A DNA stretch of 61,438 nt, filler included, from Basidiobolus ranarum (taxonomy: Eukaryota), in NCBI GenBank assembly GCA_040143965.1. It is 7 parts of 7 records of this genome, joined end to end, with 100 filler letters (N's around TTAATTAATTAA, not from the genome) between each part and the next. Parts side by side here need not be neighbours in the genome. Positions count along the whole stretch, not along the records: positions 26,422 to 35,110 come from JASJQH010007813.1; 6 more parts are not named here. One strand, written 5' to 3'. Both the position numbers and the translations under genes were made by a program. Every line of letters begins with the position of its first letter. Position 1 is the first letter of the stretch. Positions 1 through 52,766 of this stretch are shown here, piece by piece. The notes beneath the pieces are model-generated. The model did no database searches. It had not been told where the DNA came from and saw only the letters and a program-made list of their open reading frames with translations.

Positions 1-191
1 CTATCGCATGGCAATAGGCTAAATAAAAAGGATCTGAATCTACCTATCAAAATCCACAACTCCCTTCACTGTTGGTAGTCCCAGGTCAAACTACACAATA
101 CTCAGAACCTGCTGAAGTGACTGAGTGTGTTGCACCTTGCATCAATCAAGTACCTGTAGCAATGCCATGTACTGAAAATTGTGGTCAATGA
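1..191 (+). pseudogene. 3' fragment of a disabled copy of the secreted 8-Cys protein family (array at 29770-34943)
   Basis: Frame from 3 reads IAWQ*AK*KGSESTYQNPQLPSLLVVPGQTTQYSEPAEVTECVAPCINQVPVAMPCTENCGQ*, matching the array C-termini. In-frame stops TAG 15-17 and TAA 24-26. The 3' flank also matches the array spacers. Confidence 0.9.
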
Positions 192-1340
192 GATCTCCAT
201 CTCCACTCAAAATTATTGAATAAGAAGGTACATGAATAAATAAAGTAGGATTTCAGGTCAAAATTGCAACACAGAAAAGGGCTGACCGTAAGACTCTTAT
301 TAGTGTAGTCAAGTAGGATTGCAGTTGAAATTTGCAACACGGGATGTGGTTGACCTGGTGACTCTTATTATCAGTGCAGTCTACTAAGCACAGTTCAGTT
401 ATGCCAATAATAAGAATGTAGACTTCTATATTGATACGAATACATCTCACACATGGGATTGAACAGTTTGCTAACTGTACAGCAGGATAAGAATCAACAA
501 GAACAATCTATTCTGTAAAGAGTTGGATGAATTTAAAACTTTTGTTTTGAAATTGCTTATTCTTAACTAATCAACAATTATTTTCTATGTATGCACCATT
601 TCATAGATATATATGAATGGTTAATGATGCATTGCATAGATATTAAAGATGAAGTAGTCATGTGGAAGAAATACAGTTACTATATATATCAGAAATGTAG
701 GCTTCTACAAGTCAATATTAAGATTATAACTGCACGTGGTTGATACATCTTCCAGTATTATATAGGGCTCCTACTATCGAGAAGATATAGAACTGTAATC
801 CTCAACGGCTTTTATGGTTTTTGAGTGCTAGCAAATAATGATTGTGGTACAAAAATTTTCAAGGTGTGGTCATGGTAGAGTAATTTGAAAATGCAAAATA
901 GTCATTGCAACATGCTTTACGAAATGTTCAGCTTATTGAAATTTCCATGTTGATCAGTGATATCTTCTGTTACACCCACGATGTATTCGGCTCCATCTAG
1001 ATGAATTTTCAAAATTATCCAATATTTCAACGGGTTCGATCACAAGGATTGATTTTACACCGACATGATCTAAGGTTAATATTCATTGTGAGAATAGGTG
1101 AATATTTAGTAATTAGTCTCAAATCTCCATTAATATGGGGACCGAATCGGATTTCAAAAGTCTGTAAATGGCCAACGTCATAGTTGATGAACAAATCGAT
1201 CCAAATGGGACCAACACTAGAATTGTATCGGCAATTATTGAATATACTTTAGCTATTCTAAGAACAGTCACCTATTTTAGAGATGGCGTAAACTAGGTTA
1301 GGAAACTTATATAGACCTTGGGTGTGAATTGAGCGCAGTA

Positions 1341-2336
1341 ATGTTTGCCATTAAGAAAGCCCTCAAGAAATTTACCCACCCGAATTCTACCCCAACAGAA
1401 CAGGTAGCTCCAAAGTTACACGCTTCGGTCTATTATGGTGCTCCCGGACAGGATGCACCGGAAACTTACAAGAAGCATAGAATTGATGTTCTACGAGTAC
1501 AGTACTTTAATCTGCTAAACACTGGTCACCTGCAACGAGTCGATGAAGATCCAGATAATCTTTTCGATACGCAGAATGGATTTTCGGAAGAAAACGTTCG
1601 AGAGTTAAAACAATATTCTAGTGAACAACTTGTGACTGTAGCTGGCCATACTGCTGGAATGCGGTTGATAACTAAAGATGCTAATAATTCCACGACTGCC
1701 ATTACAACACTGGTAAACTTCGTGGAGGAGCACCAACTAACTGGTATAGATATCGACTTTGAGAGCTATAGTGAGTGGGATGACGAGGACTACACTGCCT
1801 ATAAAAATTTCATCTTTGCCCTTGGCAACAAGCTTCACTCGATTGGTAGAAAACTTGCTATCTGTGGTCCAGTTTGGACTTCGGACCACCCACCTTTTAG
1901 ATGGAGGTACGAGGATATTGTGAGCTTACCGGTTGACTATATTACTCTAATGGTGTATGACTATCAATGTGACCACGGTGGAGGCCAGCCTATTTGCCCT
2001 CTTGCATGGTTGAAACGCTGGGCTGGAACAATGACCAAGATCATTCCTGACAATAGATTAGTAATCGGTATCCCGTCATACAGTTACTCTGCCGTGGAGG
2101 ATGAGTACAATATCCAAAATCTAACTCTAGAACAGGTCAAAGAAAAGAACGGATATCAGGGCGGGCGACGAGATCCTTCCTCCGCTGAGGTGATTAAAGA
2201 AGTGGATGGAGTAATGTACGTGATCAATGACAGACACTCGTTAAATACGAAACGAAGGTTGCTCGAACAATTAGGTGTTAAGCATATTGCAGTTTGGCAT
2301 CTTGGTGGAAATGACTGGTTTGGAGATGGGATCTAA
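1341..2336 (+). CDS. Glycoside hydrolase family 18 (chitinase-like) protein, intronless, no obvious signal peptide
   Basis: GIDIDFE (DxDxE) catalytic motif, VDYITLMVYDY, LVIGIPSY and C-terminal AVWHLGG. ATG at 1341 follows a TATA-like element near 1308 (the ORF track starts at TTG 1329). Confidence 0.88.
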   Translation: MFAIKKALKKFTHPNSTPTEQVAPKLHASVYYGAPGQDAPETYKKHRIDVLRVQYFNLLNTGHLQRVDEDPDNLFDTQNGFSEENVRELKQYSSEQLVTVAGHTAGMRLITKDANNSTTAITTLVNFVEEHQLTGIDIDFESYSEWDDEDYTAYKNFIFALGNKLHSIGRKLAICGPVWTSDHPPFRWRYEDIVSLPVDYITLMVYDYQCDHGGGQPICPLAWLKRWAGTMTKIIPDNRLVIGIPSYSYSAVEDEYNIQNLTLEQVKEKNGYQGGRRDPSSAEVIKEVDGVMYVINDRHSLNTKRRLLEQLGVKHIAVWHLGGNDWFGDGI

Positions 2337-6310: not shown

Positions 6311-7712
6311 TCAAATCCCCTCGGTAGAATTTAGTTCCGTGGCATCAGACAATTGTTGTAATGCATCTAATTGGTCACAGAAGCCTGGGCAATGGCGATC
6401 AATTTCCTCCTTCCGTTGAACATGACTTATAGTGTCAGTTTTCTTATGTTGCGCTTGTTTCCTATGCTCTTCCCGAAGAAATTCCCTGTACTCCACTGGT
6501 ATAGGCAGTTGCAGTAGCTCCACAATCTTTTCAATCTTTCCCTCAATGTTCTGATATAGCTCAGTAAATGAAACTATTTGTACATGCTGCTTTCTCTGGA
6601 TCAAAGACTTGGCAAACTCAATTTCCTCTCTGTGACCGCGATAAATATAATTCATCATGATACTCATAAAGGCTGCATGGGTGAACGGATCAAACTTTGC
6701 GATATACAGTGTAGCCCCGCTGAGAAGTTTCAGTAAGCTAGGTATACTTTCTTCGGGATTTCGATAGATAAATATGAAGCGTGCATCGGGATATGTGTCT
6801 GTGATATGCCTGTATTCACCATTCCAACACATCACCCACTTGGCCATGTAGACAGACTGCTCATTCCCTCTCCTAAACAGTACCTTCTTCACCATCTTCT
6901 TATGGAAGTCAAACATTCTTCGACGCATGGACTTATCCAGAGACATATAGTTGGTAAAGAGCTTCATGCTCTCTGAGCTTGGATAATAAAATAATTCCGA
7001 AACAGAGAACAGAAAATGTGCCGCGAATGACATGTTGTCTTCTTCCCATTTGTCCATGCTCATACGATGCATCTTGCTTAGCTGATTCACCTCGCCCTTA
7101 CCAAATGGATCCAGTTGTTTTTTCATCCAATTATTAAAGTACTTCTCATCATAGAACCCAATAAAATCTACCAAATACTGCAGCCACAAAATCGGATACA
7201 TGTACTCCCATAATTTCAACGCCATAACGTGTTTGTCGTTAGTTGCGAGAAGATCCAACAGTTGAGTAGTGCCTGACCTAGGCTGACCTAACAGGAAGAT
7301 AGGAGACTTGACTGCAACTAGATGGTACAAAGGAAACAGTATCTCGTCAATCCACCATGCGATGTTGAATAAAGGCTGTCGCAGAAAAATGGTGTAGAAG
7401 AGTCGGCACAACCCTAGAGTTCTATACCAAGACTATGTTAGTAACTTAGAAGAGTATAGATAGGACCTGTGCAAAATGTGGATACCTGACATGCAGAGGG
7501 ATCGATGTATCCATTAATGAACATCGTATGCTTGTCAGTACATACGGGCCTACCACAAATGGCGCAAAATAGGGGGTGATTACGTAGAAAGCAATCAGCC
7601 AAAGTGACCACCCTAGTGCATAGGCTGTGGTCCATAGTAATAGTACTGGAGATACATGAGATGCCAGCTGCCAAGCGATAAGATCAAATCTTATATCGGA
7701 TACTTGCTTCAT
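6311..7712 (-). CDS. PAPS-dependent sulfotransferase with hydrophobic N-terminal anchor, 2 exons (~445 aa)
   Basis: 5'-PSB loop GQPRSGTT and 3'-PB motif IYRNPEESIPS. A 64-nt intron at 7422-7485 (GTATCC, branch TACTAAC, TAG) joins ORFs 7446-7712 and 6311-7411 in frame. Confidence 0.85.
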
Positions 7713-8713: not shown

Positions 8714-8813
8714 NNNNNNNNNNNNNNNNNNNNNNNNNNNNNNNNNNNNNNNNNNNNTTAATTAATTAANNNNNNNNNNNNNNNNNNNNNNNNNNNNNNN
8801 NNNNNNNNNNNNN
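8714..8813. other. Artificial contig linker
   Basis: N44-TTAATTAATTAA-N44, giving stops in all six frames. Confidence 0.98.
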
Positions 8814-9929: not shown

Positions 9930-11709
9930 GATCGACTTGATGAATCCCCTGGTTCTTCAAAATAATTCTTGAAGCCTGCTATGATAATAATTTTGCTAAT
10001 TCCCCCACGACAAATACTCTAAATAGCACTTCATTCCTTTTGTAAATAACTTATCCATTTGCTCTTTTTGTATCCTTTCAACATTGGCAGTCTCTGCCGA
10101 GATATATGTTGTGCACGAATTGATTCGACTTTATTTTTGTCCAACTCTTCCTTTAAATGTATTAATATATCTTGCTTCACTTCTATTCGACACTTCATAA
10201 TCATATATGCTTAATGTGCGTTCATCTCAAGTTTTACTCTCGTAACTGTAGCGATTTCCCTACCATTAGTGTATGTAATTTTTTTTGTAACAATCAAGAC
10301 CTCGCACGACACGCAATACACACTTTCATTGGATCTCGACCTCACAATTCACTTGAGAATTAATCTGACTCTTATTACACCAGAAGCAATAGAGAAGCTG
10401 TGACACATTTCATTCAATATTCCTCTTGTCAATCCATATATAATGAGTGTGTGGAACCTGAGGCTGAAAGTGGGCAGATAGTAGCTATTTCCAATCTAAC
10501 CAAACCCTAGTTAGCTGGTTGGTGGGTATCGATACCCTTGTACCACGAACACATTCTCTTAATGTAGATATTAGTAGCATTCCTCCAGATGTTAAGAATA
10601 GCTTTGTTATCCAACTGAGTTCCTAATGAAGGCGCTAGGTGGAGTGTGGAGGGTTGAAAAATGGGCAGAGGGTGGTTACTGAATTCACTTGTGGAAATAT
10701 CACATTTCTTTATAGAATGGGATGAGCACGATGAGTAGCTTGAATAATACTGAAGTGTCTTCCAGTGTGGTTGGTATTACTCTGGATTAGAAAGGCATTT
10801 ACAAAAAAGAACGCTCAAGTGGAAGCTTGAGTATTTTCCTATGGCTAATGGATGTTTAATTAAACAAGATTAACCTTCGGAGTGTTGGGGTTGTCTGAGT
10901 CTGTAAAAAGAGTTTGATCACACAAAAATCAATCACCTATTTCCTCACACATACAAAGAAGTTAGCATTGGATGTACATGTATCCCAGAGGCTCATATTC
11001 TTGTGGTATTCACTGGATGCTTCTAGCAGCAGCATCGAATGAAACTAGGAAATTTTCAGCTTTAAGGAGTAGCAATATAGATTTGCATTTCGACTGGATT
11101 GAATCTGAGCCTACTTTACTGATATGCCAACTTGTTTAGGGCCTCAAATCCATTGGCTTTAAATTACAGTGCTTGACCACATGGAAATTGGAGATGGTAG
11201 TTATTTGTCACCATTAGCCTCTTGTGAGACATTCTGTGATGTCTTGGAATCAAAATTATCAAGATTTGAAGGTTACAGCCGCCGCCATTCTGAATTGAAA
11301 TGCATACCCTATATTAATTTAAACTTTCAGTTTACAAACTCTAGTGATGTGAGAGCTAATTCAATACGTCATCTCTACATGCAGATAAGAAACTACCAAA
11401 TCTATCTATTTCACTCGCTAATATATAGATTTTGACTCAAGAATCTCTTGGTGGTTGTTTTTGAGGGTATTAAGTTCCTGTATTTGTCTACCATATATTC
11501 GTGCTCTCTAGTATATCAACTGGATTACACTTCACCTTATTCTTCTTGTTTACCGTTGTTGAACTAACTTTGATTCTTCCATTTGTGGTTGATAAAGTCG
11601 TACACTTTCAGGTTAACATTTTGCTTTTTCAAGCTTGCTACATATAAAATAACATATCCTTATACGATTCATTCCATATATTTATGTAGATACTTAACGT
11701 ACTACCAAA

Positions 11710-12318
11710 ATGCCAGCGCTTACGTTGGAAAGAGTGACAGATGAAGCTCGAGCCTTAGGGCAACGGCTATATGATGAGGACATTTATTTTGAACCACCTT
11801 TGGATGAGTTCCAGATTGTAGAATTCGAAAGAGACAACTTTATCCGATTGCCTGAGGATTATCGAGCTTTCTTGATTCATATCGGTAACGGTTCTTCAGA
11901 GACTTTCGGACAAGCGGAAGGAATCTTACCTTTAGATGAAGCACCTCATAGATACCCCGTTCCACAATCGGAGCTCCGAGCTCTGATGTCGTTGCCTTTC
12001 CCTCTAAGCAACGACCATAATTACCAGACTAATATAGAAGGTGAGGAATTAAACCAAGGACACTTAGTCATTGGTTACGATGACTACGAAACATTTTACA
12101 TTTTAATAATTGAGGGACCTTGTCGTGGCGAGATTTGGCAGCGCAAACTGGACTTTGGATTTGTGCGCTGTGCTTGTAGAGCAGGACTCTTTTCCTGGTT
12201 AGAGGATAGATTTATGAGTTTGAAGAATCGATTATATTCTTCCAGTAGCAATGAAGACGAGCTTGAAATGGAGCTGGATGAAACAGAGAGCGAAGAAGAT
12301 GAAATCAAAGAAGATTAG
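11710..12318 (+). CDS. SMI1/KNR4 (SUKH) domain protein with acidic tail
   Basis: PPLDEFQIVEFERDNFIRLPEDYRAFLIHIGNG signature, then LVIG...FYILIIEGPCRGEIW...FSWLE. Intronless CDS. Confidence 0.82.
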   Translation: MPALTLERVTDEARALGQRLYDEDIYFEPPLDEFQIVEFERDNFIRLPEDYRAFLIHIGNGSSETFGQAEGILPLDEAPHRYPVPQSELRALMSLPFPLSNDHNYQTNIEGEELNQGHLVIGYDDYETFYILIIEGPCRGEIWQRKLDFGFVRCACRAGLFSWLEDRFMSLKNRLYSSSSNEDELEMELDETESEEDEIKED

Positions 12319-13878
12319 AGCTTTTGTATTACTTTAGCAACTTTTCAAACCACTTCCTTTATATTAATTATGTTTCTAGCATAATTTCGATTACCGACTC
12401 GCAATAGGCGTACGAACTTTACTCTCCACTACTGTGCCTCGAAACAACTCCAAATAGCATTAGTTCTTTCTCTGTGAGAAAAAATTGACCACCTTCTCTT
12501 TGCATTCTACACTACACTACATTACACTGCACTGCACATTTGTATTATTTATCTTAAGCACTACTTTGCTGATAGCAAAAACACATTCTTACCTTGGTTA
12601 TTTTTCTATCCCGACTTATTTCCATTCAGGCTCTTGTCATTGGTAATCCCCCAGCGATTTATTTTCAAAAATATCTATTTACTTTTTCTGTCGTCTACTT
12701 TTGCTCACCTATTTGAAACGATGTATTCCTGAATAATATGCTCTGTGGCGTTTTAAGAGTTGATATCATTATTTCACACACTTGCTGGTACTATTTACAA
12801 TATTGTAAGTATGCAGCGATTTGGAAGATTGGCATGTCTTTACAGATAAGGTAATATTTTCATCTCACAAGACGCTTCTTGATTGAATCATTATTTTCAC
12901 CAAGTGAAACCTTTGCCACTCAAGGGGGCTTAGTATTTCTTCATTACCTTGGCAGAGCTCTAATTTCACTAACATTCAACTCAAACTTTGGAGCAGGTGG
13001 CTCATGGTGATGTTGGGAAGATTGTGGCAGTCGAGTTGAATTAATTGAGAGCGAAATGAGCAGATATTGGCGTACCTTAAACAGTGTTTATTGTCTCATC
13101 CTAGTTTTCAACTGGGAGTGGGTTGTAGATCGGCACTTTCCAGAGAATGTTTAATGCTAGTCAAACATACAACAGACCTCATGGTTTACTCAGCTTGCAC
13201 CATTGTGGCTCTATCATCAATACTGTCGACACAGTAAGAGTTGACTTTTTAGTGGTACGCTATGGCTATCAAAGCGTTCTGACTGGAGCTATGTTTGCAT
13301 GAGATTTTGAACTACAAATGATCCAAGTTGTGAACCCCGTTTGACCGTACAGTTTGGAATGGCACTTACATTTAATATATGATCCATATGAATCTTCGAG
13401 TGGACGATGTACACAGAAGAGTGTTGTGGGTTGATCTCCTTTTCACTCGTTTCTCCTTAACACGGTTCCAAATGTGTTGAAACCAACTATGTTGTGGCAG
13501 ATAATCGTGTTGAGTAGATATTAGAGAACACCCTGAGTTGGTTTGCAGAATCAAAGATATACAATGAATTCCTCGATCCAGACCCGATATTGACTGCACG
13601 CTGGAAGACAAGATTTGGTTTTCGAATTTGCAAATACGGGTATTTTGAAAGCTCATTAACTAATAGGTGCCATGTAGATAGCTCCACCAGGTCTAATCCT
13701 GAAGAGAATCGGTATAAATAGAAGCCTTATGTAACGGTCATGTGCGTTTTTATAATTCGCAAATCACTTGTTGATGATTTTAAACAAAGACGTTCTTAAC
13801 AAAGATATCATAACATTAGCGTAGGAACAACGCTCTAAAACCTTCTCATTGCGTTATTTTTTGTCAAGCCTAAGCATC

Positions 13879-15261
13879 ATGACATTCACTATGAACCTTG
13901 CAAGCTGGTCCCTCAAAGAAAAAATCTATATTCCGCTTACCATCGGATGGAACCTTTTCTTGCTGTTAACAACTACGGTTTCCCTGCTTCAGTACCGAAC
14001 CCCATCAATTAGATACCGAGGTGTATTGCTGTCCCTGTGCATGGTTTTGGCTAACTCCCTAATTGTAACATTGTATTTAGGTCGCGAATCGTGGATTGAT
14101 GAGTTTCCTTGCTATATCAGCCTTTGGGTATCTTCAATCATGATGCCACTTTGGCTACTTGCAGTAGGGGGAAGATTTTTACGTCTCGCGTTTCTTTACC
14201 ACTTTAGTCAAGCGAAATTGATGGCAGGATCCAACAATTCAGTGAATGGAGAACTTACTGTTGTCCATGTCGAAAGTGGTGACGATCAAAGTCTAGTTGA
14301 AACGAATACTCTGCATAAGGCATTTGTCTCTCGACAGCAATCCTCAGTCTTTATACCAATCACCATTTTAGATGAAAATTGGTACTATCGTCATCGGAAT
14401 AAGTTCACTACCAAAGCAATATTCAAGTTTATACTGGGCGGGTTGTTGCTTCAAATAGCCTTAACCGGACTTGTACAGGCATTTAGTACGAAGTTTGCTA
14501 TATTGCCAAGTCCAGCCAGAGGGAATTGTCTAACCGGGTGGGAGTTTACTCCAGTTTTTCTAACTTCTGGATTTTATGTATTTGCCATGTGTCCAATCTT
14601 TATCTCTTGGCTTAAAGGTGTAAATGATGCTTATGGCATAAAACGTGAACTCACGGCGGATTTTACTGTGGGTGTTGCTTCCTTTGTGTTGTATATCATA
14701 TTCGCAGCGATCCCTCTTTTCAACGGTTTCAACAAGGTATTTCCGGCGGCTCACTGGAGTGTGCTTGCTTTAATGATAAGTCATATTTGCAGTATCGTTT
14801 TACCAGCAATTGACGCCATACATGGTGCGTGCAACAAACAGAGTAAAACAAGCTTTTCAAGTTTCGAGTCTATGCTGGGTGATTCAACACAATTCGAACT
14901 TTTCAAGCATTTCTCTTTGAGAGATTTCAGCGTAGAAAATGCGTTATTTTATGAAAGGTGTATCCGTCTTCGACTGATGAGTTGTAAACAACCTGTAAGT
15001 GAAAAAGGGAAGCTAAATACGGATATATTGCTAGAGATCAATAGTATCTATCATACATTCATCTCTTCACAATCCGAATTTGAGTTAAACTTGGACGCCG
15101 CTACTGTGAGAGAGATACGTCGTCAATTTCAAGAAAAAAATATCACTCTGACTATATTTGATACTGCCCTTAACGAAGTAAGGAACCTGATGTACAGACA
15201 TACTTTCCCAAGATATGTCAAATTAAGAGAGAAAAGTTTGAATGAATCAGGTATATTCTAA
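13879..15261 (+). CDS. 7TM receptor-like protein with C-terminal RGS domain (GprK-like)
   Basis: About 7 hydrophobic segments and a DAYGIKREL loop. RGS motifs FSVENALFYE, IYHTFI...FELNLD and IFDTALNEVRNLMYRHTFPRY. First ATG at 13879. Confidence 0.87.
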   Translation: MTFTMNLASWSLKEKIYIPLTIGWNLFLLLTTTVSLLQYRTPSIRYRGVLLSLCMVLANSLIVTLYLGRESWIDEFPCYISLWVSSIMMPLWLLAVGGRFLRLAFLYHFSQAKLMAGSNNSVNGELTVVHVESGDDQSLVETNTLHKAFVSRQQSSVFIPITILDENWYYRHRNKFTTKAIFKFILGGLLLQIALTGLVQAFSTKFAILPSPARGNCLTGWEFTPVFLTSGFYVFAMCPIFISWLKGVNDAYGIKRELTADFTVGVASFVLYIIFAAIPLFNGFNKVFPAAHWSVLALMISHICSIVLPAIDAIHGACNKQSKTSFSSFESMLGDSTQFELFKHFSLRDFSVENALFYERCIRLRLMSCKQPVSEKGKLNTDILLEINSIYHTFISSQSEFELNLDAATVREIRRQFQEKNITLTIFDTALNEVRNLMYRHTFPRYVKLREKSLNESGIF

Positions 15262-17520: not shown

Positions 17521-17620
17521 NNNNNNNNNNNNNNNNNNNNNNNNNNNNNNNNNNNNNNNNNNNNTTAATTAATTAANNNNNNNNNNNNNNNNNNNNNNNN
17601 NNNNNNNNNNNNNNNNNNNN
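17521..17620. other. Artificial contig linker
   Basis: N44-TTAATTAATTAA-N44. Confidence 0.98.
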
Positions 17621-26321: not shown

Positions 26322-26421
26322 NNNNNNNNNNNNNNNNNNNNNNNNNNNNNNNNNNNNNNNNNNNNTTAATTAATTAANNNNNNNNNNNNNNNNNNNNNNN
26401 NNNNNNNNNNNNNNNNNNNNN
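26322..26421. other. Artificial contig linker
   Basis: N44-TTAATTAATTAA-N44. Confidence 0.98.
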
Positions 26422-27386
26422 CATAATCTAATAATAGAAGAGTTCTATTTGCAGTGGATCAGCATGCCAAGATCAGAATCATGACAATGGTTTTCTTATG
26501 ATAACAATCCTCAAATTTCTGCTAGGGTGTGTGGCAGGCTATTCCGGACTGTAACTATGATATCTTGATCAGTAGTAGATACTCAATCGCATTCCATTTC
26601 ATTCAATCAAATAGTTCCTATATTAATTAGTGATTTAATGTCTTCTCCTGGCTTCATCTTTAAGTTAAAGAATTGTCTTCTTAGAAGCATCTTGTTGGCA
26701 GCAGAAATTGTTTTGTGGGTGTCTTCCAAGGCTTTCCATACCTTCTTGGCAGTTTTAGCTCTTGAACATTGAATTAGCAATTTGTCTTTAACATTGAGAC
26801 AAATTGTGTTACAGGCACTTTGCTCTTTTTTAACCAGGAGTAAAACTTTGGTTTAAGATAGTTTTGCATTGTTTTCTTCTCCTACAACAGTGTCCCAAAG
26901 TCTTTTTTCTTGCAGCAGCATTTTCATTTTAGTTTTCCAAACTTGATAATTGGTTCCATCCAATTTTCATAAGAGGGAAAAGTCCTATAAATTTGAGAAG
27001 TAGACATTACAGAGAGTGTAAGCTTGGAGCTCATAATCTGTTAAAGTACTTGGGAGCCTGTTGGAAGTGGTTTGGAGAATCAGAGGAGTTGGTGGTTTTC
27101 ACTTGTTGATTTATTGAGTAGAAAGTTGACATTTATAGTTTTGTCAAGATGTAGACAAACTAATGTGTAGAATGTGTTAAGGAAGGTCCCAGGAACATGT
27201 TGGCAAAGTTTGGAGCTTCTAGCACAAGTTTGAAAAATCTACATATCTGAGAACTTCTAAGTTGGTAAAAATATTCTTAGTAAATTCCAATTGATAATAA
27301 TTGACAATATCTTAGTGAGTTATAAGATAACTAAGCACTAAGTTATATATGACTATATAGGTGCTTAGGCAATGCTAATCTCAACA
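26422..27386 (-). mobile_element. 5' end of a decayed Ty1/copia LTR retrotransposon (family A): LTR, PBS, gag
   Basis: 348-bp LTR at 27039-27386 (TGTT...AACA), followed on the minus strand by a PBS-like GATTATGAGCTCCAAGC. Gag reads KLDGTNYQVWKTKMKMLLQEKRLWDTV...TAKKVWKALE...KMLLRRQFFNLKMKPGE...NSLP with stops and a frameshift. Truncated by contig start. Confidence 0.9.
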
Positions 27387-27414
27387 CAGGACCCCTGATG
27401 ATAGTGCTCTTTAT

Positions 27415-28661
27415 CCCCTTGACAAAAATAACAATAACTTGATCTAGATTGGATCCACCCTTTAGGAGCACAAAACCATCAGAGGACTTTGACAATATTG
27501 GTGTCTTATTTTCTGCCAATGGCAAGATAGTGGCTTCCTAACAGTATTGTGATGGTTATCATAGATGGTGAAACAACTGATCCTGATATTTATCATGTGA
27601 AATTTAATTTCCAAGAATTTCTGTAAACACCGATTTTTGAATGGCATATTACTGTGCTTTCTGCTTTAGGAATTCCAATTAGAATGTATGCCTTTATGTT
27701 GATATTTAGGATTTGTATTCCAGCCATAATGAGAATCAAAAAATACAAGAATCTTGTTGTTTTTAGTCTCTACATGTGCACATACTAGACTGATCAGACA
27801 TAACTAAATAACATCAATATCCTTTACCAGCAAAATAATGGTGGCAAAATTGCTAAACATCTGAAATTTAGAGTGGCAATGACACTTGGAAAATAGCTGA
27901 CTTTTGTTGATATTGACAAAAACAATAAGCTCTTGGATTTTGGCAAATTTCTGTCAGGAATTCAGCCAAAATATCCCCAACTTCCAGTCAATAAATGTCC
28001 TGCCACAAGAAGATATGGCAGGGCTTGAATAGATTACCACATGGCTAAAACAATAATACATTATATCATGATCTTTCTCACCAAGGAGTTTGTCTTGCTG
28101 CTTTTTTAGATATACCCTTAGATTATCATGCTAACAAATTATTCTCATTGTGAACAGTAACAAGAGTCAGCTATTTGCCAAGTGCCAGTGCTTTTCAAAA
28201 TTTCAGATGTTTAGCAATTATTCTACTGTTAGTTTGTTGATAAAGAATATTGATGTTGTTCAGTTATATCTGATCAGTCAAGTATGTGCATATGTAGAGA
28301 ATAAACACAACAAGATTCTTGTATCTTTTGATTCTCATTATGGCTGGAATACAAAGCCTAAAATATCTAAATAAAGGCATGCATATTAATTTGAATTCCT
28401 ATAGTAGTAAACCCAGTAATTTGCCATTCAAAAATTAGTTTTTTGCAAAAATTGTTGGAAACTAAATAACGCATGCCAAATATGAGGATCAATATTTTAC
28501 CATGTATGATTACCATCAGAATACCATTAAGAAGCCACCATCTAACAATCAATATCCCTGGCAGAATGCAAGCCACCAATAATGTGATGGTCCTCTGACA
28601 GTTTTGCAATACAGAATGGTGGATCCAATCCAGAGAAAATTGATTTTATTTTTGTTAGGGG
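27415..28661. mobile_element. Non-autonomous foldback / long-TIR element
   Basis: About 500-bp diverged inverted arms (~27415-27920 and ~28148-28661) around a ~230-bp spacer. For example, TTTGTATTCCAGCCATAATGAGAATCAAAA near 27712 is the reverse complement of TTTTGATTCTCATTATGGCTGGAATACAAA near 28326. No transposase. Confidence 0.75.
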
Positions 28662-28978
28662 TTGGCTTACAAAGAGGTCTCTACTAAGCTGTATACTGGT
28701 ATTATATTAATTATGACTCTGACTTTTGCTGATGCAAATTGCACAACTAAATATACCGTATAATTCGGAGCAAATATCTGGTGTCGTTAGTATCAACAAG
28801 TGCAGTTTTCTTTTGGTTACTTTCAATTTCATTCATGCATTGATATAATATTGAATTAAATGTAACTTAAAATTATGTTGTAAATTTAATTTTACATAGT
28901 ATTCATGAGTAAAGTAGGCACTTATAGGGTTGGGTAGTTAAAACAAAGTTAGCTTTGGTTACCAAGGCAAATCTCTTC

Positions 28979-29190
28979 CAAATAGCAAACAAGTTTTAGC
29001 CTGGAGCCGAGCAAAGGCATTTACGTATGACAACAAAAATGATCAGAATCGTCAAGCAATAGTTAGCTAATGCCCTCACCGGTGAGAATTCTAAGTAAAG
29101 TTACTTGCTATTCAGCACCAGCCGAAGTGATCTAGCGTGTTGCATCGTGTCTCAATCAAATATGTAAATCAACCCCATGAACTGTGAATA
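28979..29190 (+). pseudogene. Highly degenerate 3' half of another 8-Cys family copy
   Basis: AAATAGCAAACAAGTTTTAGCCTGGAG resembles the KYQTGPSLE codons. From 29109 reads YSAPAEVI*RVASCLNQICKSTP*TVN. Followed by a family-type 3' flank CATGAATAAATAAAGTA near 29228. Confidence 0.75.
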
Positions 29191-29691
29191 ACCGCTTGAC
29201 ATTTAAAAAATAGGCTAAAAAAAGGCTCATGAATAAATAAAGTATGAATTCATTTTATGTTCACAGCAAAAGGTATGATTCATATGATATCTCTCTCAAA
29301 CGGTGCAGTCTATCAATCAAAGCTTTGTCACACCAGTAACATATAGGTAGGCTTTTTAACGTCACCGTCGACCCTAGTAATATTCGTCTAGTCTACCAAC
29401 TAATACATAGCACCAATCTCAAACCTTTTCGGTTGTTTAAATTGTTATTAGAATATGGTTTACTTCATGAGTATGTTGAACTGTGCAGTGACCTATTTGT
29501 TAATTTCGGTAAGCGTGGAGCTTCTTTCTTTCATTTTAGTTACAATACTTTGACCAAGTAGCTCTACTTCGGTAAACCATTTAAAGAACAAAATCTATTT
29601 GCATTATACCGTCTGTGTCAATAGAGTGGTCAACTTTAACCAGACGCCAACGGAAATGAATAAATCAAGCTGACATCAATTTCATTTTCAA

Positions 29692-29734
29692 GCACTAACT
29701 AAACTATGCTATATGATGCATACATCTATATATA
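29692..29734 (+). promoter_or_regulatory. Family-conserved upstream motif GCAYTAACTAAAC plus TATA-like element
   Basis: The motif lies 78-80 nt upstream of the ATG in all five copies (29692, 30758, 31936, 33246, 34344; the copy-4 version is diverged). It is followed by TATATA and an AATC-ATG start context. Confidence 0.6.
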
Positions 29735-29769
29735 GAGCTCTATGCCGGTATATTCAGAGTATACTAATC

Positions 29770-30294
29770 ATGCGTTTTACTTCCATTGTCTTCATTCTAG
29801 CTGCTGCCTCTATTCAAACTGCCATTGCCACTCCACTTGGCTGCTCATCTCCATGTACTGACACGATCGGGAGAGTTTACTATCGCTCATTGCCATGTGA
29901 ACAACAAGCAATAAACTGTAATCACAATGCCCAAATGCCACCTGCTATCAAGACAACAAGCACACATACCCCACTATTGAGACAGCTATTCACCACCATC
30001 ACCAGGAAACATGACAATTTGAATACCGCTAGCGCAAGTAACAGAAAAGGAATCAATGTCAAGTATCAAACGGGGCCAAGCTTGGAAGCCGAAGGCAATG
30101 CTATCGCATGGCAATATGCTAAACAAAAAGGATCAAAATCTTCTGAGGAAAATCCACAACTCCCCTCACCAATGATAGTCCCAGGTCAAACTGCGCAATA
30201 CTCAGCACCTGCTGAAATGACCGAGTGTGTTGCACCTTGTATTGATCAAATACCAGTATCAACCCTATGTACTGAAAATTGTAATCAAAGATAA
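29770..30294 (+). CDS. Orphan secreted 8-Cys protein, array copy 1 (174 aa)
   Basis: Signal-peptide-like MRFTSIVFILAAASIQTAIA. Pattern C-x3-C-x13-C-x6-C ... C-x3-C-x9-C-x3-C. Start set at 29770 by alignment with paralogs. Confidence 0.85.
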   Translation: MRFTSIVFILAAASIQTAIATPLGCSSPCTDTIGRVYYRSLPCEQQAINCNHNAQMPPAIKTTSTHTPLLRQLFTTITRKHDNLNTASASNRKGINVKYQTGPSLEAEGNAIAWQYAKQKGSKSSEENPQLPSPMIVPGQTAQYSAPAEMTECVAPCIDQIPVSTLCTENCNQR

Positions 30295-30835
30295 GTTTAC
30301 TTCTACCCAAATTTGATGGCCAAAAAAGGTGTATAAATAAATGACATAGGATTACAGTTGAAATTTACAACATGAGATAGAGTTGACCTGGCCACTTTTA
30401 TTATCAGTGCAGCTTACCAAGCACAGTCCAGTTACGCCAATAACAAAAACATATGCTGCTATATTGATGCGAATACATCGCACATATGAAGTTGAACGAT
30501 TTGCTAACTATACAGTAGCATAATAATCTATTTCACTGGAGAATCTTTTATTCATTTTAGTATCATTATTTTCATCGCGATAAGTAATTTTCTATAATTT
30601 ACTTCTAACAAAAACTAAACGATTGGCTTTAATCACAGCTTGGGCTGAGTCTCAGCGGTTTGAATTTAGAAATCACATTATCAAAATAGAGGTCAGCTGT
30701 AACCAGATGTTAATTGAAACGAATCTAACAAGTTACATTGAATTTCAATATCGTAGAGCATTAACTAAACTGTGATATATGATGGTAGCAAGTATATATT
30801 GTACCTAATGTCGGTATATTCAATGTGTACTAATC

Positions 30836-31336
30836 ATGCGTTTTACTTCTATTTCCCTCACCCTTGCTGCTGTCTGCCTACAAACTGCCATCGCCACTCC
30901 ACTTGGCTGCACTTCTCCATGCACTGGCACTATCGGAAGAGTCTACTATCGTTCATTACCATGTGAACAACAATCAATAAACTGCAACCACAATGTCCAA
31001 ATGCAACCGACTATAAAGACAACAAGCACACATACTCCACTTTTGAGGCAAGTATTCACCACCATCACCAGGAAACATGACAATTTGAACACCGCCAGTG
31101 CTAATAACAGAAAAGGAATCAATGTCAAGTATCAAGCAGGCCCTAGCTTGGAGGCAGAAGGCAATGCTATTGCATCGGAATATGCCAAAGAAAAAGGTTC
31201 AGAATCTTCAAATGTCAACACGGAACTCCCTTCACTGATGGTAATCCCAGGTCAATCTACACACTACTCAGCACCTGCAGATATGACAGAGTGCGTTGCA
31301 CCTTGCGTTGATCAAGTACCTATATCAACACCTTGA
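30836..31336 (+). CDS. Orphan secreted Cys-rich protein, array copy 2 (premature stop removes last two Cys)
   Basis: Paralog of copy 1. The seventh Cys codon is TGA (31334-31336), and the ancestral tail TENCAQ* is still present downstream to 31357. Confidence 0.8.
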   Translation: MRFTSISLTLAAVCLQTAIATPLGCTSPCTGTIGRVYYRSLPCEQQSINCNHNVQMQPTIKTTSTHTPLLRQVFTTITRKHDNLNTASANNRKGINVKYQAGPSLEAEGNAIASEYAKEKGSESSNVNTELPSLMVIPGQSTHYSAPADMTECVAPCVDQVPISTP

Positions 31337-32015
31337 ACTGAAAATTGTGCTCAATAAGATCTCTAGTTCCACCCAAATTTGCAGACCAAAGAGGTTGGAT
31401 GAACAAATAAAGTAGGATTTCATTTTGAATTTTCAATACGGGATGCACATGATCGGGCAAAGCTTTAATTGATGCAGTCCTCAAGGAAAGGCCCAGTGAT
31501 GTATGGATATACTTCTTAATGTAACAGTGAAAACAACTAAATATATAATTTAACCGTGTAGCATTCAGTTAATTAGTCAAAAAATACATGATAAATACCC
31601 AGAAACAAAGCTGCTATGTCACTAACTAATTAAAATATTGGTAACCTAATGATTTTAATGATGAATATACATTTCACATAGTAGGTTATAGGATTGACAC
31701 CTTTTATAATAACATGGTACTCAATTTTTAAGTCCTTTGTAAATATTTTTTCCACGTTTGATGACAAATCTACCATCTGACTTTAATAGAAATCAATCGC
31801 GTTGCAACAATTACGGCCCAAGCTAAATCTCACTGCCTTGGGTCTGAAAATCTAAATATCAATATAGACGTTAACTTCAACCAAAAGTTATTTGAAATGA
31901 ATACATCAAGTTCACGACAATTTCATTATTACAAAGCACTAACTAAACTACGATATATGACGTAAACCAATATATATGTAGGGCCCTATCTTGGTGTATT
32001 CAAAATGTAATAATC

Positions 32016-32540
32016 ATGCGTTTTACTTCCATTTCTCTCATCCTAGCAGTTGCTTCCCTTCGAACGGTCATCACCACTCCACTTGGCTGCTCTTCTCCAT
32101 GCACTGGCACTATCGGAAGAGTTTACTATCGTTCATTACCATGTGAGCAGCAGACAATAGGCTGTAACCAGAATGTCCAAGTGCAACCTATCATCAAGGC
32201 AGCAAGCACACATACCCCACTATTGAGACAGGTATTCACCACCATCACCAGGAAACATGACAATTTGAATACCGCTAGCGCTAGTCACAGAAAAGGAATC
32301 AATTTCAAGTATCAAACGGGGCCGAGTTTGGAAGCCGAAGGCAATGCTATCGCATGGCAATATGCTAAACAAAAAGGATCAGAATCTTCTGTTGAAAATC
32401 CACAACTCCCTTCACTGATGATAGTCCCAGGTCAAACTGCACAATACTCAGCGCCTGCCGAAATAACTGAGTGTGTAGCACCTTGCAACGATCAAATACC
32501 TGTATCAACTCCATGCACTGAAAATTGTTATCAAGGATAA
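32016..32540 (+). CDS. Orphan secreted 8-Cys protein, array copy 3 (174 aa)
   Basis: Same signal peptide, Cys pattern and conserved core as the other copies. Confidence 0.85.
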   Translation: MRFTSISLILAVASLRTVITTPLGCSSPCTGTIGRVYYRSLPCEQQTIGCNQNVQVQPIIKAASTHTPLLRQVFTTITRKHDNLNTASASHRKGINFKYQTGPSLEAEGNAIAWQYAKQKGSESSVENPQLPSLMIVPGQTAQYSAPAEITECVAPCNDQIPVSTPCTENCYQG

Positions 32541-32950
32541 GTTTACTCCTACCCAAGTTTGATAGCCAAAGAAGGTGTATGAAAAAATAAAGTAGGATTG
32601 CAGTTAAAATTTGCCACTACAGATGTGATAGACTGGACAACCTCATAATTGTCACTTATAAGCTGTTTACATGGAAATATGAGCTATATGAAAATAGGAT
32701 CAATGAGATACTCTGATCTCTCATAATGGAGAAGTTGGATGGTTGTTGCTCCCAAGTCCACATATTTTGGTCGATTCAAGGCATAAGAGAAGCAAATTGC
32801 TAATATATCAAGTTTTTTATTATTATGGATAGGGGTATACTTCCTATAAGATATCATTTTAAGCTTTTATATGAACTCTATAAGTTAATTTATTTAGTAT
32901 ATGCAGCACGGGAAAGTTCATAATTGTATTACTATCGTCTTAGGGTATTG

Positions 32951-33050
32951 GAAACATTGACTAACTACCGTCCGAATATATAGAAAACTGTGGTCAATGT
33001 GATCTTGAATTTTACCTATAGTTGAGGAAAAGAAAATGTTTATGAATAAT
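32951..33050 (+). pseudogene. Ghost family copy with almost the whole CDS deleted
   Basis: Promoter-like CATTGACTAACTAC...ATATATAG is joined directly to terminal codons GAA AAC TGT GGT CAA (ENCGQ) and a family-type 3' flank. Confidence 0.55.
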
Positions 33051-33323
33051 TACCGGGTGATCAGGAGTATTTTTTCATTCCTTCAAAAATGAACACTTTT
33101 TTTTCGTCAAGTAACTACTTTTCGCTAAATTTTTAATATACAAAAATCTCTTTGCACTAACCATAGCATTAATACATAGGTTGACTTCAATTAGATTTTA
33201 ATTGAAATGAATACCGCAACTTTATTTTACTTTCATTCCCGTAAGGAACTGACTAAACCATGGCACATGAAGCAAATAAGTATATATAGAGCTAGATGTT
33301 GCTCCATTCAGAGTATACCAATC

Positions 33324-33845
33324 ATGCATTTTACTTCCATTGCCCTCATCCTAACTGCTGCTTGCCTGCAAACTGCCATCGCTGCTCCACTTGGTTGCTC
33401 TTCTCAATGCACCGGGACGATGAGAAGAACTTACTATCGCTCGTTACCATGTGAACAACAAGCAATAGGCTGTAACCAGAACGTTCAAATACAACCTGTT
33501 TTCAAGACAACAAGCACACATACTCCACTTTTGAGACAAGTGTTCACCACAATCACCAGGAAACATGACAATCTGAACACTGCTAGCGCCAGTCACAGAA
33601 AAGCAATCAATGTCAAGCATCAAGCAGGACCTAGTTTGGAGGCAGAAGGAAATGCTATTATATCGGCATATGTAAAAGAAAAAGGTTCAGAATCCTCCAA
33701 TGTCAGTTCGGGACTCCCGCCGCTAATGATGATCCCAAGTCAACCTATGCAGTATTCGGCACCTGCCGAGGTGACTGAGTGTGTTGAACCTTGCGTAGAT
33801 CTAGTACCTGTATCAGCACCATGTACTGAAAATTGTAGTCAATGA
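33324..33845 (+). CDS. Orphan secreted 8-Cys protein, array copy 4 (173 aa)
   Basis: MHFTSIALILTAACLQTAIA signal. Start set at 33324 by alignment (the ORF track start at 33207 is upstream of the promoter motif). Confidence 0.85.
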   Translation: MHFTSIALILTAACLQTAIAAPLGCSSQCTGTMRRTYYRSLPCEQQAIGCNQNVQIQPVFKTTSTHTPLLRQVFTTITRKHDNLNTASASHRKAINVKHQAGPSLEAEGNAIISAYVKEKGSESSNVSSGLPPLMMIPSQPMQYSAPAEVTECVEPCVDLVPVSAPCTENCSQ

Positions 33846-34421
33846 GATCGCCACTTCTACTCAAATTTATTGAATAAAGAAGGTACATGATAATATAAAG
33901 TAGGATTTCAGGAAATATTTGCAACACAGGGAATGGCTGACCGAAAGACTCTTACTAGTGTAGTCTACTAAGCACAGCTCAGTCACGCCACTCAAAGATA
34001 AAACTCTCTATTGATACGAATACATCTCACACATGAAGTTGAACGGTTTGCTAACTGTGCAGTAGTATAATAATCAATTTCAGTGGATCTGAAGCAATTT
34101 TCATTTTTTCTAGTATTAATATTTTCACCACGATAAGTAATTATTCTATAATTTACTTTTAAAAAAATAGCAATTATTCTGTAATTCGTTTTTATTAAAA
34201 AATATGGCCATGTACATTAACCACAGCCTGAGTGAAGTGTCACCCATTTGGGTTTAAAAGTCACAGTATCAATATGGATCAGCTTCAACCAGATGTTAAT
34301 TGAAATGAGGAAATCAAGTCGACTTCAATCTCATTATCCTAAAGCATTAACTAAACTATGATATATGACGCCTACATGTATATATTGAGCCCTATATTGG
34401 TGTATTCAAAGTATACCAATC

Positions 34422-34943
34422 ATGCATTTTACTTCTATCGCTTTCATTGTAGCTGCTGCTTATCATCAAACTGTCTTCGCCACCCCACTAGGCTGCTCTT
34501 CTCCATGCACTGGCACTATCGGAAGAGTCTACTATCGTTCATTACCATGTGAACAACAAGCAGTCGACTGCAACCAGAATGCCCAAATGCAGCCGACTAT
34601 AAAGACTACAAGTACACATACCCCACTATTGAGACAAATATTCACCACCATCACCAGGAAACATGACAATTTGAACACTGCTATCGCCAGTCACAGAAAA
34701 GGAATCAATGTTAAGTATCAAACAGGTCCTAGTCTGGAGGCAGAAGGCAACGCTATTGCATGGGAATTTGCCAAAGAAAAAGGCTCAGAATCCTCAAATG
34801 ATAATTCGGAACTCCCTTCATTGATGATAATCCCAGGTCAAACTTCAGAATACTCAGCACCTGCAGAAATGACCGATTGTGTTGCACCATGTACCGATCA
34901 AGTAACCATGTCAACACCATGTATTGGAAATTGTGGTCAATAA
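34422..34943 (+). CDS. Orphan secreted 8-Cys protein, array copy 5 (173 aa)
   Basis: Same Cys pattern and core. The signal region carries a polar YHQ change. Confidence 0.85.
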   Translation: MHFTSIAFIVAAAYHQTVFATPLGCSSPCTGTIGRVYYRSLPCEQQAVDCNQNAQMQPTIKTTSTHTPLLRQIFTTITRKHDNLNTAIASHRKGINVKYQTGPSLEAEGNAIAWEFAKEKGSESSNDNSELPSLMIIPGQTSEYSAPAEMTDCVAPCTDQVTMSTPCIGNCGQ

Positions 34944-35110: not shown

Positions 35111-35210
35111 NNNNNNNNNNNNNNNNNNNNNNNNNNNNNNNNNNNNNNNNNNNNTTAATTAATTAANNNNNNNNNNNNNNNNNNNNNNNNNNNNNNNNNN
35201 NNNNNNNNNN
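35111..35210. other. Artificial contig linker
   Basis: N44-TTAATTAATTAA-N44. Confidence 0.98.
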
Positions 35211-43890: not shown

Positions 43891-43990
43891 NNNNNNNNNN
43901 NNNNNNNNNNNNNNNNNNNNNNNNNNNNNNNNNNTTAATTAATTAANNNNNNNNNNNNNNNNNNNNNNNNNNNNNNNNNNNNNNNNNNNN
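43891..43990. other. Artificial contig linker
   Basis: N44-TTAATTAATTAA-N44. Confidence 0.98.
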
Positions 43991-52666: not shown

Positions 52667-52766
52667 NNNNNNNNNNNNNNNNNNNNNNNNNNNNNNNNNN
52701 NNNNNNNNNNTTAATTAATTAANNNNNNNNNNNNNNNNNNNNNNNNNNNNNNNNNNNNNNNNNNNN
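52667..52766. other. Artificial contig linker
   Basis: N44-TTAATTAATTAA-N44. Confidence 0.98.

Follow-up and report, generated by a model that had tools for sequence, protein, structure and literature searches.

Hydrophobins are moderately hydrophobic proteins of about 100 aa that carry their cysteines in the form C-CC-C-C-CC-C. This strictly conserved eight-cysteine pattern defines the group, and hydrophobin candidates were recovered from only one of six Zoopagomycota genomes surveyed; Basidiobolus is not named in that survey (bioRxiv 10.1101/2022.08.19.504535). Here, we describe a tandem gene array of Basidiobolus ranarum whose products resemble hydrophobins in being small, multicopy, putatively secreted and equipped with eight cysteines. 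However, these proteins lack adjacent cysteines (C-x3-C-x13-C-x6-C-x102-C-x3-C-x9-C-x3-C in four of five, the exception being gene 2), are hydrophilic (GRAVY of −0.36 to −0.58) and longer (145 to 153 aa when mature), and belong to a family in which the number of cysteines ranges from 0 to 9. No hydrophobin Pfam match was obtained for four array proteins or 59 aligned family members. An earlier sequence-only reading of this DNA had set the array apart from the hydrophobin pattern, and that distinction holds.

A functional analogy may be drawn with the Ustilago maydis repellents (Rep1), which are lineage-specific, secreted, nonhydrophobin products whose 34- to 53-aa peptides form amyloid fibrils in the cell wall (PMC3133707) and are similar in size to the 42-aa module, M1, at the core of the array proteins. 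However, Rep1 comes from a single gene whose 12 repeats are released at KEX2 sites, whereas the array family has one M1 per protein, more than 100 copies and no conserved KR or RR, and no homology between the two emerged. Spidroins, minicollagens and the K/Y-rich mussel foot proteins are fibrous or glue proteins with terminal domains. The likeness of the family to these proteins, namely, conserved end modules, a variable low-complexity middle, CxxxC-type cross-links and a cationic K/Y-rich block, would be an analogy of layout only, as no sequence similarity was found.

In zygomycetes, Pfam matches are lacking for over two-thirds of the shared small-secreted-protein groups, and the sets of such proteins differ between herptile-gut and insect-pathogen lineages (PMC9391592). 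The family reported here, its modules and its size do not appear in the portion of that article examined, and our literature search found no paper on the family.

Organization and conservation of the array

In the analyzed window (61,438 nucleotides), 100-nt N spacers link several contigs, and the array lies on contig G000:C7813. It comprises five intronless open reading frames (ORFs) on one strand, with start-to-start spacings of 1066, 1180, 1308 and 1098 nt (Table 1), which matches the head-to-tail paralogs 1.07 to 1.31 kb apart described previously. The five proteins are 71 to 84% identical in pairwise comparisons. Three relics had also been proposed. A DNA profile of the array unit retrieved three matches, one of which lies on a separate contig (C7810) and another of which is weak. 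Together with the stops in the relics, an overall dN/dS of 0.25 among the five genes agrees with the suggested multigene family that includes pseudogenes and is under (purifying) selection.

Table 1. Features of the array and related sequences (positions along the window)
Feature	Position	Strand	Remarks
Gene 1	29770..30294	+	174 aa, M1-only, 8 Cys in mature part
Gene 2	30836..31336	+	166 aa, 6 Cys, premature in-frame TGA at codon 167
Gene 3	32016..32540	+	174 aa, M1-only, 8 Cys
Gene 4	33324..33845	+	173 aa, M1-only, 8 Cys in mature part; most divergent copy
Gene 5	34422..34943	+	173 aa, M1-only, 8 Cys
Module M1 of gene 1	29971..30096	+	Residues 68-109
Module M1 of genes 2-5	31037-31162, 32217-32342, 33525-33650, 34623-34748	+	
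Duplicated proximal promoter, TATA-like run	29690..29769	+	Same element before each copy
Degenerate relic, 3' half of array unit	28970..29297	+	E 8.5e-32; stops and frameshifts
Weak 81-nt relic, 3' end of array unit	32976..33056	+	E 3e-5
Pseudogene copy, 3' half, two in-frame stops	1..303	+	E 4e-75; truncated by start of contig C7810

All five proteins start with a 10-residue hydrophobic stretch (mean KD of 2.3 to 2.9) with an A-x-A-like site at its end, so that the signal-peptide-like start noted earlier is supported by hydropathy, on which secretion was judged. Cysteine clusters at both ends were retained in four proteins, while gene 2 keeps only six cysteines. As dN/dS between gene 2 and the other array genes is 0.19 to 0.28, this copy is possibly still functional despite its premature stop. 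The linker, previously described as variable, varies in sequence but is constant in length within the array.

Constraint is strongest in the Cys-free core, which the sequence-only reading had described as near-invariant. Among the five proteins, 41 of 50 positions are invariant in residues 64 to 113, compared with 25 of 42 in residues 22 to 63 and 23 of 53 in residues 114 to 166. The dN/dS of the M1 core was 0.08 (95% confidence interval, 0.03 to 0.21) for the five genes and 0.10 for 11 copies; this is purifying selection and not the value near 1 that had been named as contrary to the proposal. No region of the array genes had a dN/dS above 1. M1 is also conserved in Basidiobolus meristosporus ORX80713, where 34 of 42 residues are identical, compared with 26 of 46 directly upstream. 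The P-to-GP spacing was constant in 39 of 39 nonredundant M1 cores, all drawn from the 60 of 84 ORFs that satisfied the pattern used to excise them.

The 80 nt preceding the start codons (−80 to −1) are 75% identical among the array copies, compared with approximately 63% expected from dS. The promoter element matched 14 of 14 upstream regions of the array branch and none of 61 from other branches; it is part of the duplicated unit. The earlier suggestion of bulk, stage-specific production was correct in that the copies have a promoter in common, but an element that belongs to the duplicated unit does not show such production.

A two-module family apparently restricted to Basidiobolus

The array was first read as an orphan system defined by its eight-cysteine frame. 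Neither part of this description stood: the B. ranarum genome yielded at least 126 M1 matches (E ≤ 0.001), M1 also has homologs in B. meristosporus, it occurs in proteins with 0 to 9 cysteines, and the C-terminal cysteine spacing shifts in B. meristosporus. For a second module of 38 aa, M2, which has a cationic tail behind it, at least 87 matches were obtained in B. ranarum (E ≤ 0.001). Family genes encode both modules, M1 only (as in the array) or M2 only. Judged from these sequence comparisons, the five array genes are one cysteine-decorated branch of a far larger family of secreted proteins, and the array lacks M2.

The full layout consists of a signal peptide, a short N-terminal piece (often with C-x6-C), M1, an acidic low-complexity spacer, M2 and a tail rich in K, R, Y and H. 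In 55 of 56 ORFs, M1 starts 58 to 71 residues from the initial Met, and the sequences upstream of it are unrelated; M2 lies 78 to 87 residues from the C terminus in 28 of 29. The middle region is 23 to 179 aa long and net acidic in 27 of 29 ORFs, while the last 25 aa carry a charge of +5 to +10 in 27 of 29. M1 is followed by a low-complexity spacer or by nothing, the latter in some members of only 123 to 130 aa. Many copies are pseudogenes, and drift may therefore be behind part of the copy number.

The closest homologs are B. meristosporus ORX80713, ORX73421 and ORX80394, which represent clusters of 4, 23 and 32 members and are 44 to 54% identical to the array proteins. Like the latter, they have a signal, the N-terminal C-x3-C-x13-C-x6-C, M1 and a Cys4-Cys5 distance of 102; unlike them, they have a C-terminal cysteine spacing of x15 instead of x9 or lack one pair. 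By these sequence features, the three clusters belong to the same family, while a quick M1 tree neither supported nor excluded a single clade of the eight-cysteine branches of both species. In B. meristosporus, M1-only genes are interspersed with M2-only ones, with an M1-only model on 9 of the 13 contigs bearing an M2-only model; six contigs carry them under consecutive accessions.

A search of 1.84 billion representatives with the M1 profile returned 30 matches, of which 20 were the array protein or named Basidiobolus; of 6 others, 4 were read and proved family-like. The remaining four, repeat proteins with scores summed from weak stretches, were rejected. In a word-index search, M1 matched 19 proteins named Basidiobolus plus the array's own protein, and all 44 M2 matches among the best 8000 candidates scored were from Basidiobolus. 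None of 203 pattern matches in metagenome contigs was confirmed. As all named homologs are from this genus, the family appears to be restricted to it.

No Pfam domain reached the curated cutoff in four array proteins and 59 and 37 aligned members. The best recurring matches fell below it and were rejected; they were to myticin-prepro in 6 of the 59 members (best E, 0.0023) and to evasin in 4 of them (best E, 0.006). Likewise, a PDB sequence search with an array protein and both module profiles gave nothing beyond one chance match at an E of 1. The claim that no known domain is present thus survived both searches, which yielded no catalytic or binding domain. AlphaFold2 monomers were extended chains (pTM of 0.13 and 0.17), although with shallow alignments of 59 and 37 rows a failed fold demonstrates neither disorder nor assembly. 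Foldseek returned no match for the AlphaFold2 model, which is uninformative since the query was unfolded. The ESM Atlas model of the array protein had no fold; the best Atlas score (0.93, to an unnamed Basidiomycota cluster) is a lead only, and the M2-only protein scored 0.79. A spacing common to M1 and M2 by eye (LL-x2-V-x11-L) was rejected as a sign of homology (hhalign probability of 0.4).

A putative extracellular coat or glue

Our best guess for the array proteins is a self-assembling structural role. We give an even chance to an extracellular structural protein that assembles via M1 and M2, with disulfide cross-links added by the array branch. Secreted and largely unfolded, the family proteins would build an extracellular coat or glue in which M1 and M2 gain structure only upon meeting other copies (M1-M1 or M1-M2). 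Disulfide cross-links would come from three CxxxC pairs in the array branch. The acidic spacer and cationic tail of M2 proteins, with their opposite charges, could help the material condense. Basidiobolus capilliconidia have adhesive tips (PMC10964425), and judging from the life cycle, the material would most likely be found there or on spore surfaces. M1 is a plausible assembly module because it is the most constrained region and is fixed in position and spacing, and a structural role is suggested by the very high gene dosage of both modules together with the lack of a catalytic or binding domain.

Against this reading, 107 distinct M1 cores displayed no covariation with a hairpin register, and the hydrophobic moment of the first half of M1 is helical, not beta. 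In its favor, the second half alternates between hydrophobic and polar residues (moment of 1.06 to 1.37 at 170 degrees versus 0.36 to 0.74 at 100 degrees, without a shuffle control). Covariation between M1 and M2 could draw on only 17 distinct sequences (effective number, 13), which is too few. The contigs shared by M1-only and M2-only models in B. meristosporus speak for the structural reading, while strict M1-M2 pairing is weakened because M1-only and M2-only arrays are unmixed in B. ranarum and their promoters did not match each other. A more specific version, which we consider doubtful, is that M1 and M2 are complementary modules of a glue or fiber found only in Basidiobolus. Repeated splitting of an ancestral M1-spacer-M2-tail protein would have produced cross-linkers with M1 alone, among them the array genes, and cationic adhesive subunits with M2 alone. 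Coamplified to more than 100 genes, these would jointly form the capilliconidial tip adhesive or a hydrophobin-independent spore coat.

The same layout could instead mark precursors from which M1, or the cationic tail of M2 proteins, is excised as an antimicrobial or signaling peptide, with the acidic spacer as a neutralizing pro-piece. Acidic pro-pieces of animal antimicrobial precursors resemble the order of signal, acidic spacer and cationic aromatic tail in M2 proteins, and this tail is similar in both species. Basidiobolus also lives among gut bacteria (PMC10964425), which would suit such a product. However, the array proteins lack both a cationic tail and internal peptide repeats, and their net charge is −3 to +2. 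KR or RR is absent from the mature part of four of the five and falls within M1 in only 8 of 60 M1-bearing ORFs, although RK and KK pairs, common in M1, are possible sites. The 102-residue gap between the cysteine clusters, fixed in both species, suits an intact chain. We regard peptide release as unlikely. That fixed distance, along with the even number of cysteines, is also what a small disulfide-bonded carbohydrate-binding or inhibitor-like protein missed by the predictors would have, and UniRef names some B. meristosporus homologs "CBM1" or "SCP domain." Yet these labels conflict within one 90% cluster (CBM1, SCP or uncharacterized), and none of 59 members, the labeled proteins included, matched a CBM1 or SCP Pfam model at an E of ≤1; by this comparison the labels are unsupported. 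Given also the shift or loss of C-terminal cysteines between species and the unfolded AlphaFold2 and Atlas models, a small folded protein seems quite improbable.

RxLR and PEXEL motifs are signals whose distance from the preceding signal peptide is fixed, and the position of M1, its basic residues followed by acidic ones and the birth-and-death evolution of the family would fit a sorting, maturation or uptake signal in proteins acting on insect or vertebrate carriers. In zygomycetes, effector predictions are frequent among small secreted proteins (PMC9391592). However, 42 conserved residues without indels are long for a signal, no cargo domain follows M1, and the absence of dN/dS values above 1 likewise makes this explanation very improbable. 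Slighter still is the chance that M1 forms a minimal amphipathic beta-hairpin and oligomerizes in membranes like the aerolysin/ETX-MTX2 stem. The hydrophobic-polar alternation, which surrounds a conserved GPS turn, and Atlas feature matches to ETX_MTX2 clusters (0.86 and 0.84) point in this direction, but Atlas scores below 0.9 are leads only, and the Pfam, PDB and covariation results and the lack of room for the other aerolysin domains count against it.

The adhesive capilliconidial tip carries Basidiobolus to insects and from there to amphibian and reptile guts (PMC10964425), and our literature search found nothing on the makeup of this adhesive. With more than 100 loci in B. ranarum and relatives found in Basidiobolus only, the M1/M2 family is a well-defined new protein family even without coassembly. 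If M1 and M2 do coassemble, they would constitute a new fungal material. Overall, the 42-aa M1 and the 38-aa M2 are short, concrete candidates for what coats or glues Basidiobolus spores.

The tandem array and its conservation

The sequence-only reading described five tandem genes and three relics, and both were borne out, the relics by a DNA profile (one of them weakly). Start-to-start spacings in the array are 1066, 1180, 1308 and 1098 nt. The Cys pattern was also as described, with the exception of gene 2, which has a stop at codon 167 and encodes six Cys. As the array is located on contig C7813 and the relic at 1-303 on contig C7810 of concatenated contigs, the window's other genes do not count as neighbors of the array.

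The core also proved more conserved than its flanks: 41 of 50 core positions are invariant versus 25 of 42 and 23 of 53 in the flanks. The pooled dN/dS, suggested as a check, was 0.25 (95% CI, 0.17 to 0.34) over the whole gene and 0.08 in residues 68 to 109. With a dS of about 0.5, these values identify the array genes as old duplicates under selection.

Features of the window and one related locus
Feature	Position	Strand	Remarks
Array genes 1 to 5	29770, 30836, 32016, 33324, 34422 (starts)	+	M1 only
Relic	28970-29297		DNA profile match
Relic	1-303		On contig C7810; DNA profile match
Relic	32976-33056		Weak DNA profile match
Short ORFs only	26422-28700		Upstream of array, same contig; by eye, some look like decayed gag/integrase fragments of retrotransposons
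Internal duplication	near 27600-28370		Upstream of array
GH18 chitinase-like ORF	1302-2336	+	Intronless; PF00704, E 6e-14; no obvious signal peptide
Sulfotransferase	6311-7432	-	Intronless; PF13469, E 1e-14; bacterial origin possible
SMI1/KNR4 (SUKH-1) domain ORF	11698-12318	+	Intronless; E 3.5e-8
Multipass membrane protein	13825-15261	+	C-terminal RGS domain; PF00615, E 2e-15
Six 100-nt spacers	8714-8813, 17521-17620, 26322-26421, 35111-35210, 43891-43990, 52667-52766		N runs around the word ttaattaattaa; separate contigs joined, artificial neighborhood
M1+M2 protein (locus L048)	G000:C6971:5900-6980		Spacer with repeated Lys/His-rich octapeptides and Met-rich repeats

A two-module family in Basidiobolus

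The real unit behind the window genes is a superfamily; the family proposed earlier is real and selected, but larger and more structured than first described. A literature search found no paper on this M1/M2 family, which is undescribed as far as this search reached, and the supplements of PMC9391592 may list its proteins as an unnamed group. In its own genome, gene 3 had at least 124 matches (E ≤ 1) and a divergent core query at least 126 (E ≤ 0.001), both lower bounds for M1 that include pseudogenes. M1 is a 42-residue Cys-free module common to all these matches, with P, F, L, Q, G and P invariant among 39 non-redundant cores. M2, the second module of long members, gave at least 83 and 87 genome matches, and no M1-M2 homology was detectable. 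A set of 99 loci yielded 77 non-redundant ORFs that start with a hydrophobic stretch; 47 of these contained M1 only, 13 both modules and 17 M2 only. True M1-only genes number fewer than 47, as 10 of the 47 run off the end of their locus and further ones derive from broken M1+M2 genes.

M1 starts 58 to 71 residues from the Met in 55 of 56 ORFs, and M2 starts 78 to 87 residues from the C terminus in 28 of 29. The middle segment is 23 to 179 aa long and acidic in 27 of 29. The C-terminal 25 residues are cationic, again in 27 of 29. One M1+M2 branch with many pseudogenes (C1873, C11825, C1240 and C5722; L044, L059, L049 and L055) has an acidic M1 and a C-x2-C-x-C-x2-C tail followed by an arginine run.

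The C-x6-C pair upstream of M1 is common to several other branches, M2-only proteins included; the three CxxxC pairs are a feature of the window branch and its Basidiobolus meristosporus counterparts. Cys4 and Cys5 are separated by 102 residues in 10 of 11 copies of this genome and in four of five examined B. meristosporus proteins of the window type. The B. meristosporus counterparts either have x15 as the last Cys spacing or lack the last pair. In this genome, a copy on contig C7858 stops early, as gene 2 does. Separate cross-linking pairs would therefore fit better than a single folded 8-Cys domain, and gene 2 need not be dead.

All named homologs are from Basidiobolus, with none named outside it. 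They include eight B. meristosporus protein clusters (44 to 54% identity); proteins to which ORFs of this genome matched bear the name B. ranarum. The core profile had 30 matches among 1.84 billion representatives: 20 were own or named Basidiobolus sequences, 6 were not name-checked, and the remaining 4 were repeat proteins and were rejected. No match was confirmed in a metagenome scan for the family. UniRef names disagree among near-identical B. meristosporus proteins (P0002 to P0044), which are labeled variously as CBM1, SCP, endoglucanase carbohydrate-binding or uncharacterized, and several of these gene models seemingly fuse two neighbors.

Gene arrangement in two species

In this genome, M1-only arrays (C7813, and C7858 with seven M1 matches) and M2-only arrays (C7471, with seven matches in 10 kb, and C1261) are unmixed. 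Further M2-only tandem arrays were noted on C1160, C7540 and C2797 (on all five contigs, L073 to L094 and L101 to L104). Their tails, in B. meristosporus too, are nearly invariant, cationic and composed of K/R/Y/H/F, with a net charge of +9 to +10. Such a tail is by itself a candidate for an adhesive or antimicrobial segment.

In B. meristosporus, judged by accession numbers and contig sizes, an M1-only model is also present on at least 9 of 13 contigs bearing an M2-only model, with consecutive accessions on at least 6 of those (e.g., ORX80708/09/10 and ORX83083/84/85). Ten of the 13 contigs were tabulated; the other three (P0042, P0100 and P0109) had no M1-only model among the members listed, which for the two largest clusters were 15 of 23 and 15 of 32. 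Nine models have M2 joined to a following M1, most likely predictor fusions of adjacent genes.

In a quick tree of 93 columns, an M1+M2 gene from the present genome fell into one group with the B. meristosporus M2-only genes (support, 97). A single clade for all 27 M2-only rows was rejected (p-AU 0.013). As this test was made post hoc, with the tree already seen, we only tentatively suggest that M1 was lost repeatedly.

Possible function of the family

The earlier impressions of no recognized domain and of no hydrophobin both held, with no Pfam or PDB match found and membership tests supporting the latter. These tests also rejected identity with repellents, KEX2 repeat proteins, CBM1 proteins and SCP proteins. 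AlphaFold2 modeled both the mature window protein (pTM 0.13) and an M1+M2 protein (pTM 0.17) as extended chains, with confidence peaking over the start of M1; a small fold missed by predictors is improbable in our estimate. The first half of M1 has a helical moment and the second alternates in a beta-strand manner. Covariation within M1 indicated no hairpin, and a membrane hairpin is the least probable of the alternatives considered.

We give about an even chance to the family being a secreted material that would assemble through M1 and M2, to which the window branch would contribute M1 and disulfide cross-links. This reading is favored because indel-free conserved end modules flank a stretchable charged spacer, gene number is very high, and neither a catalytic or binding domain nor a monomer fold was predicted. 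A peptide precursor is unlikely, although it leads the alternatives, and a sorting signal or effector is ranked slightly below the missed fold.

In zygomycetes, secreted families that are restricted to one genus and lack Pfam domains are common, according to PMC9391592. By analogy, the M1/M2 family may work in the manner of repellents (PMC3133707). The adhesive tips of Basidiobolus capilliconidia and the thick walls of its zygospores (PMC10964425 and PMC13370150) would be the obvious candidates for sites at which such a material is used.
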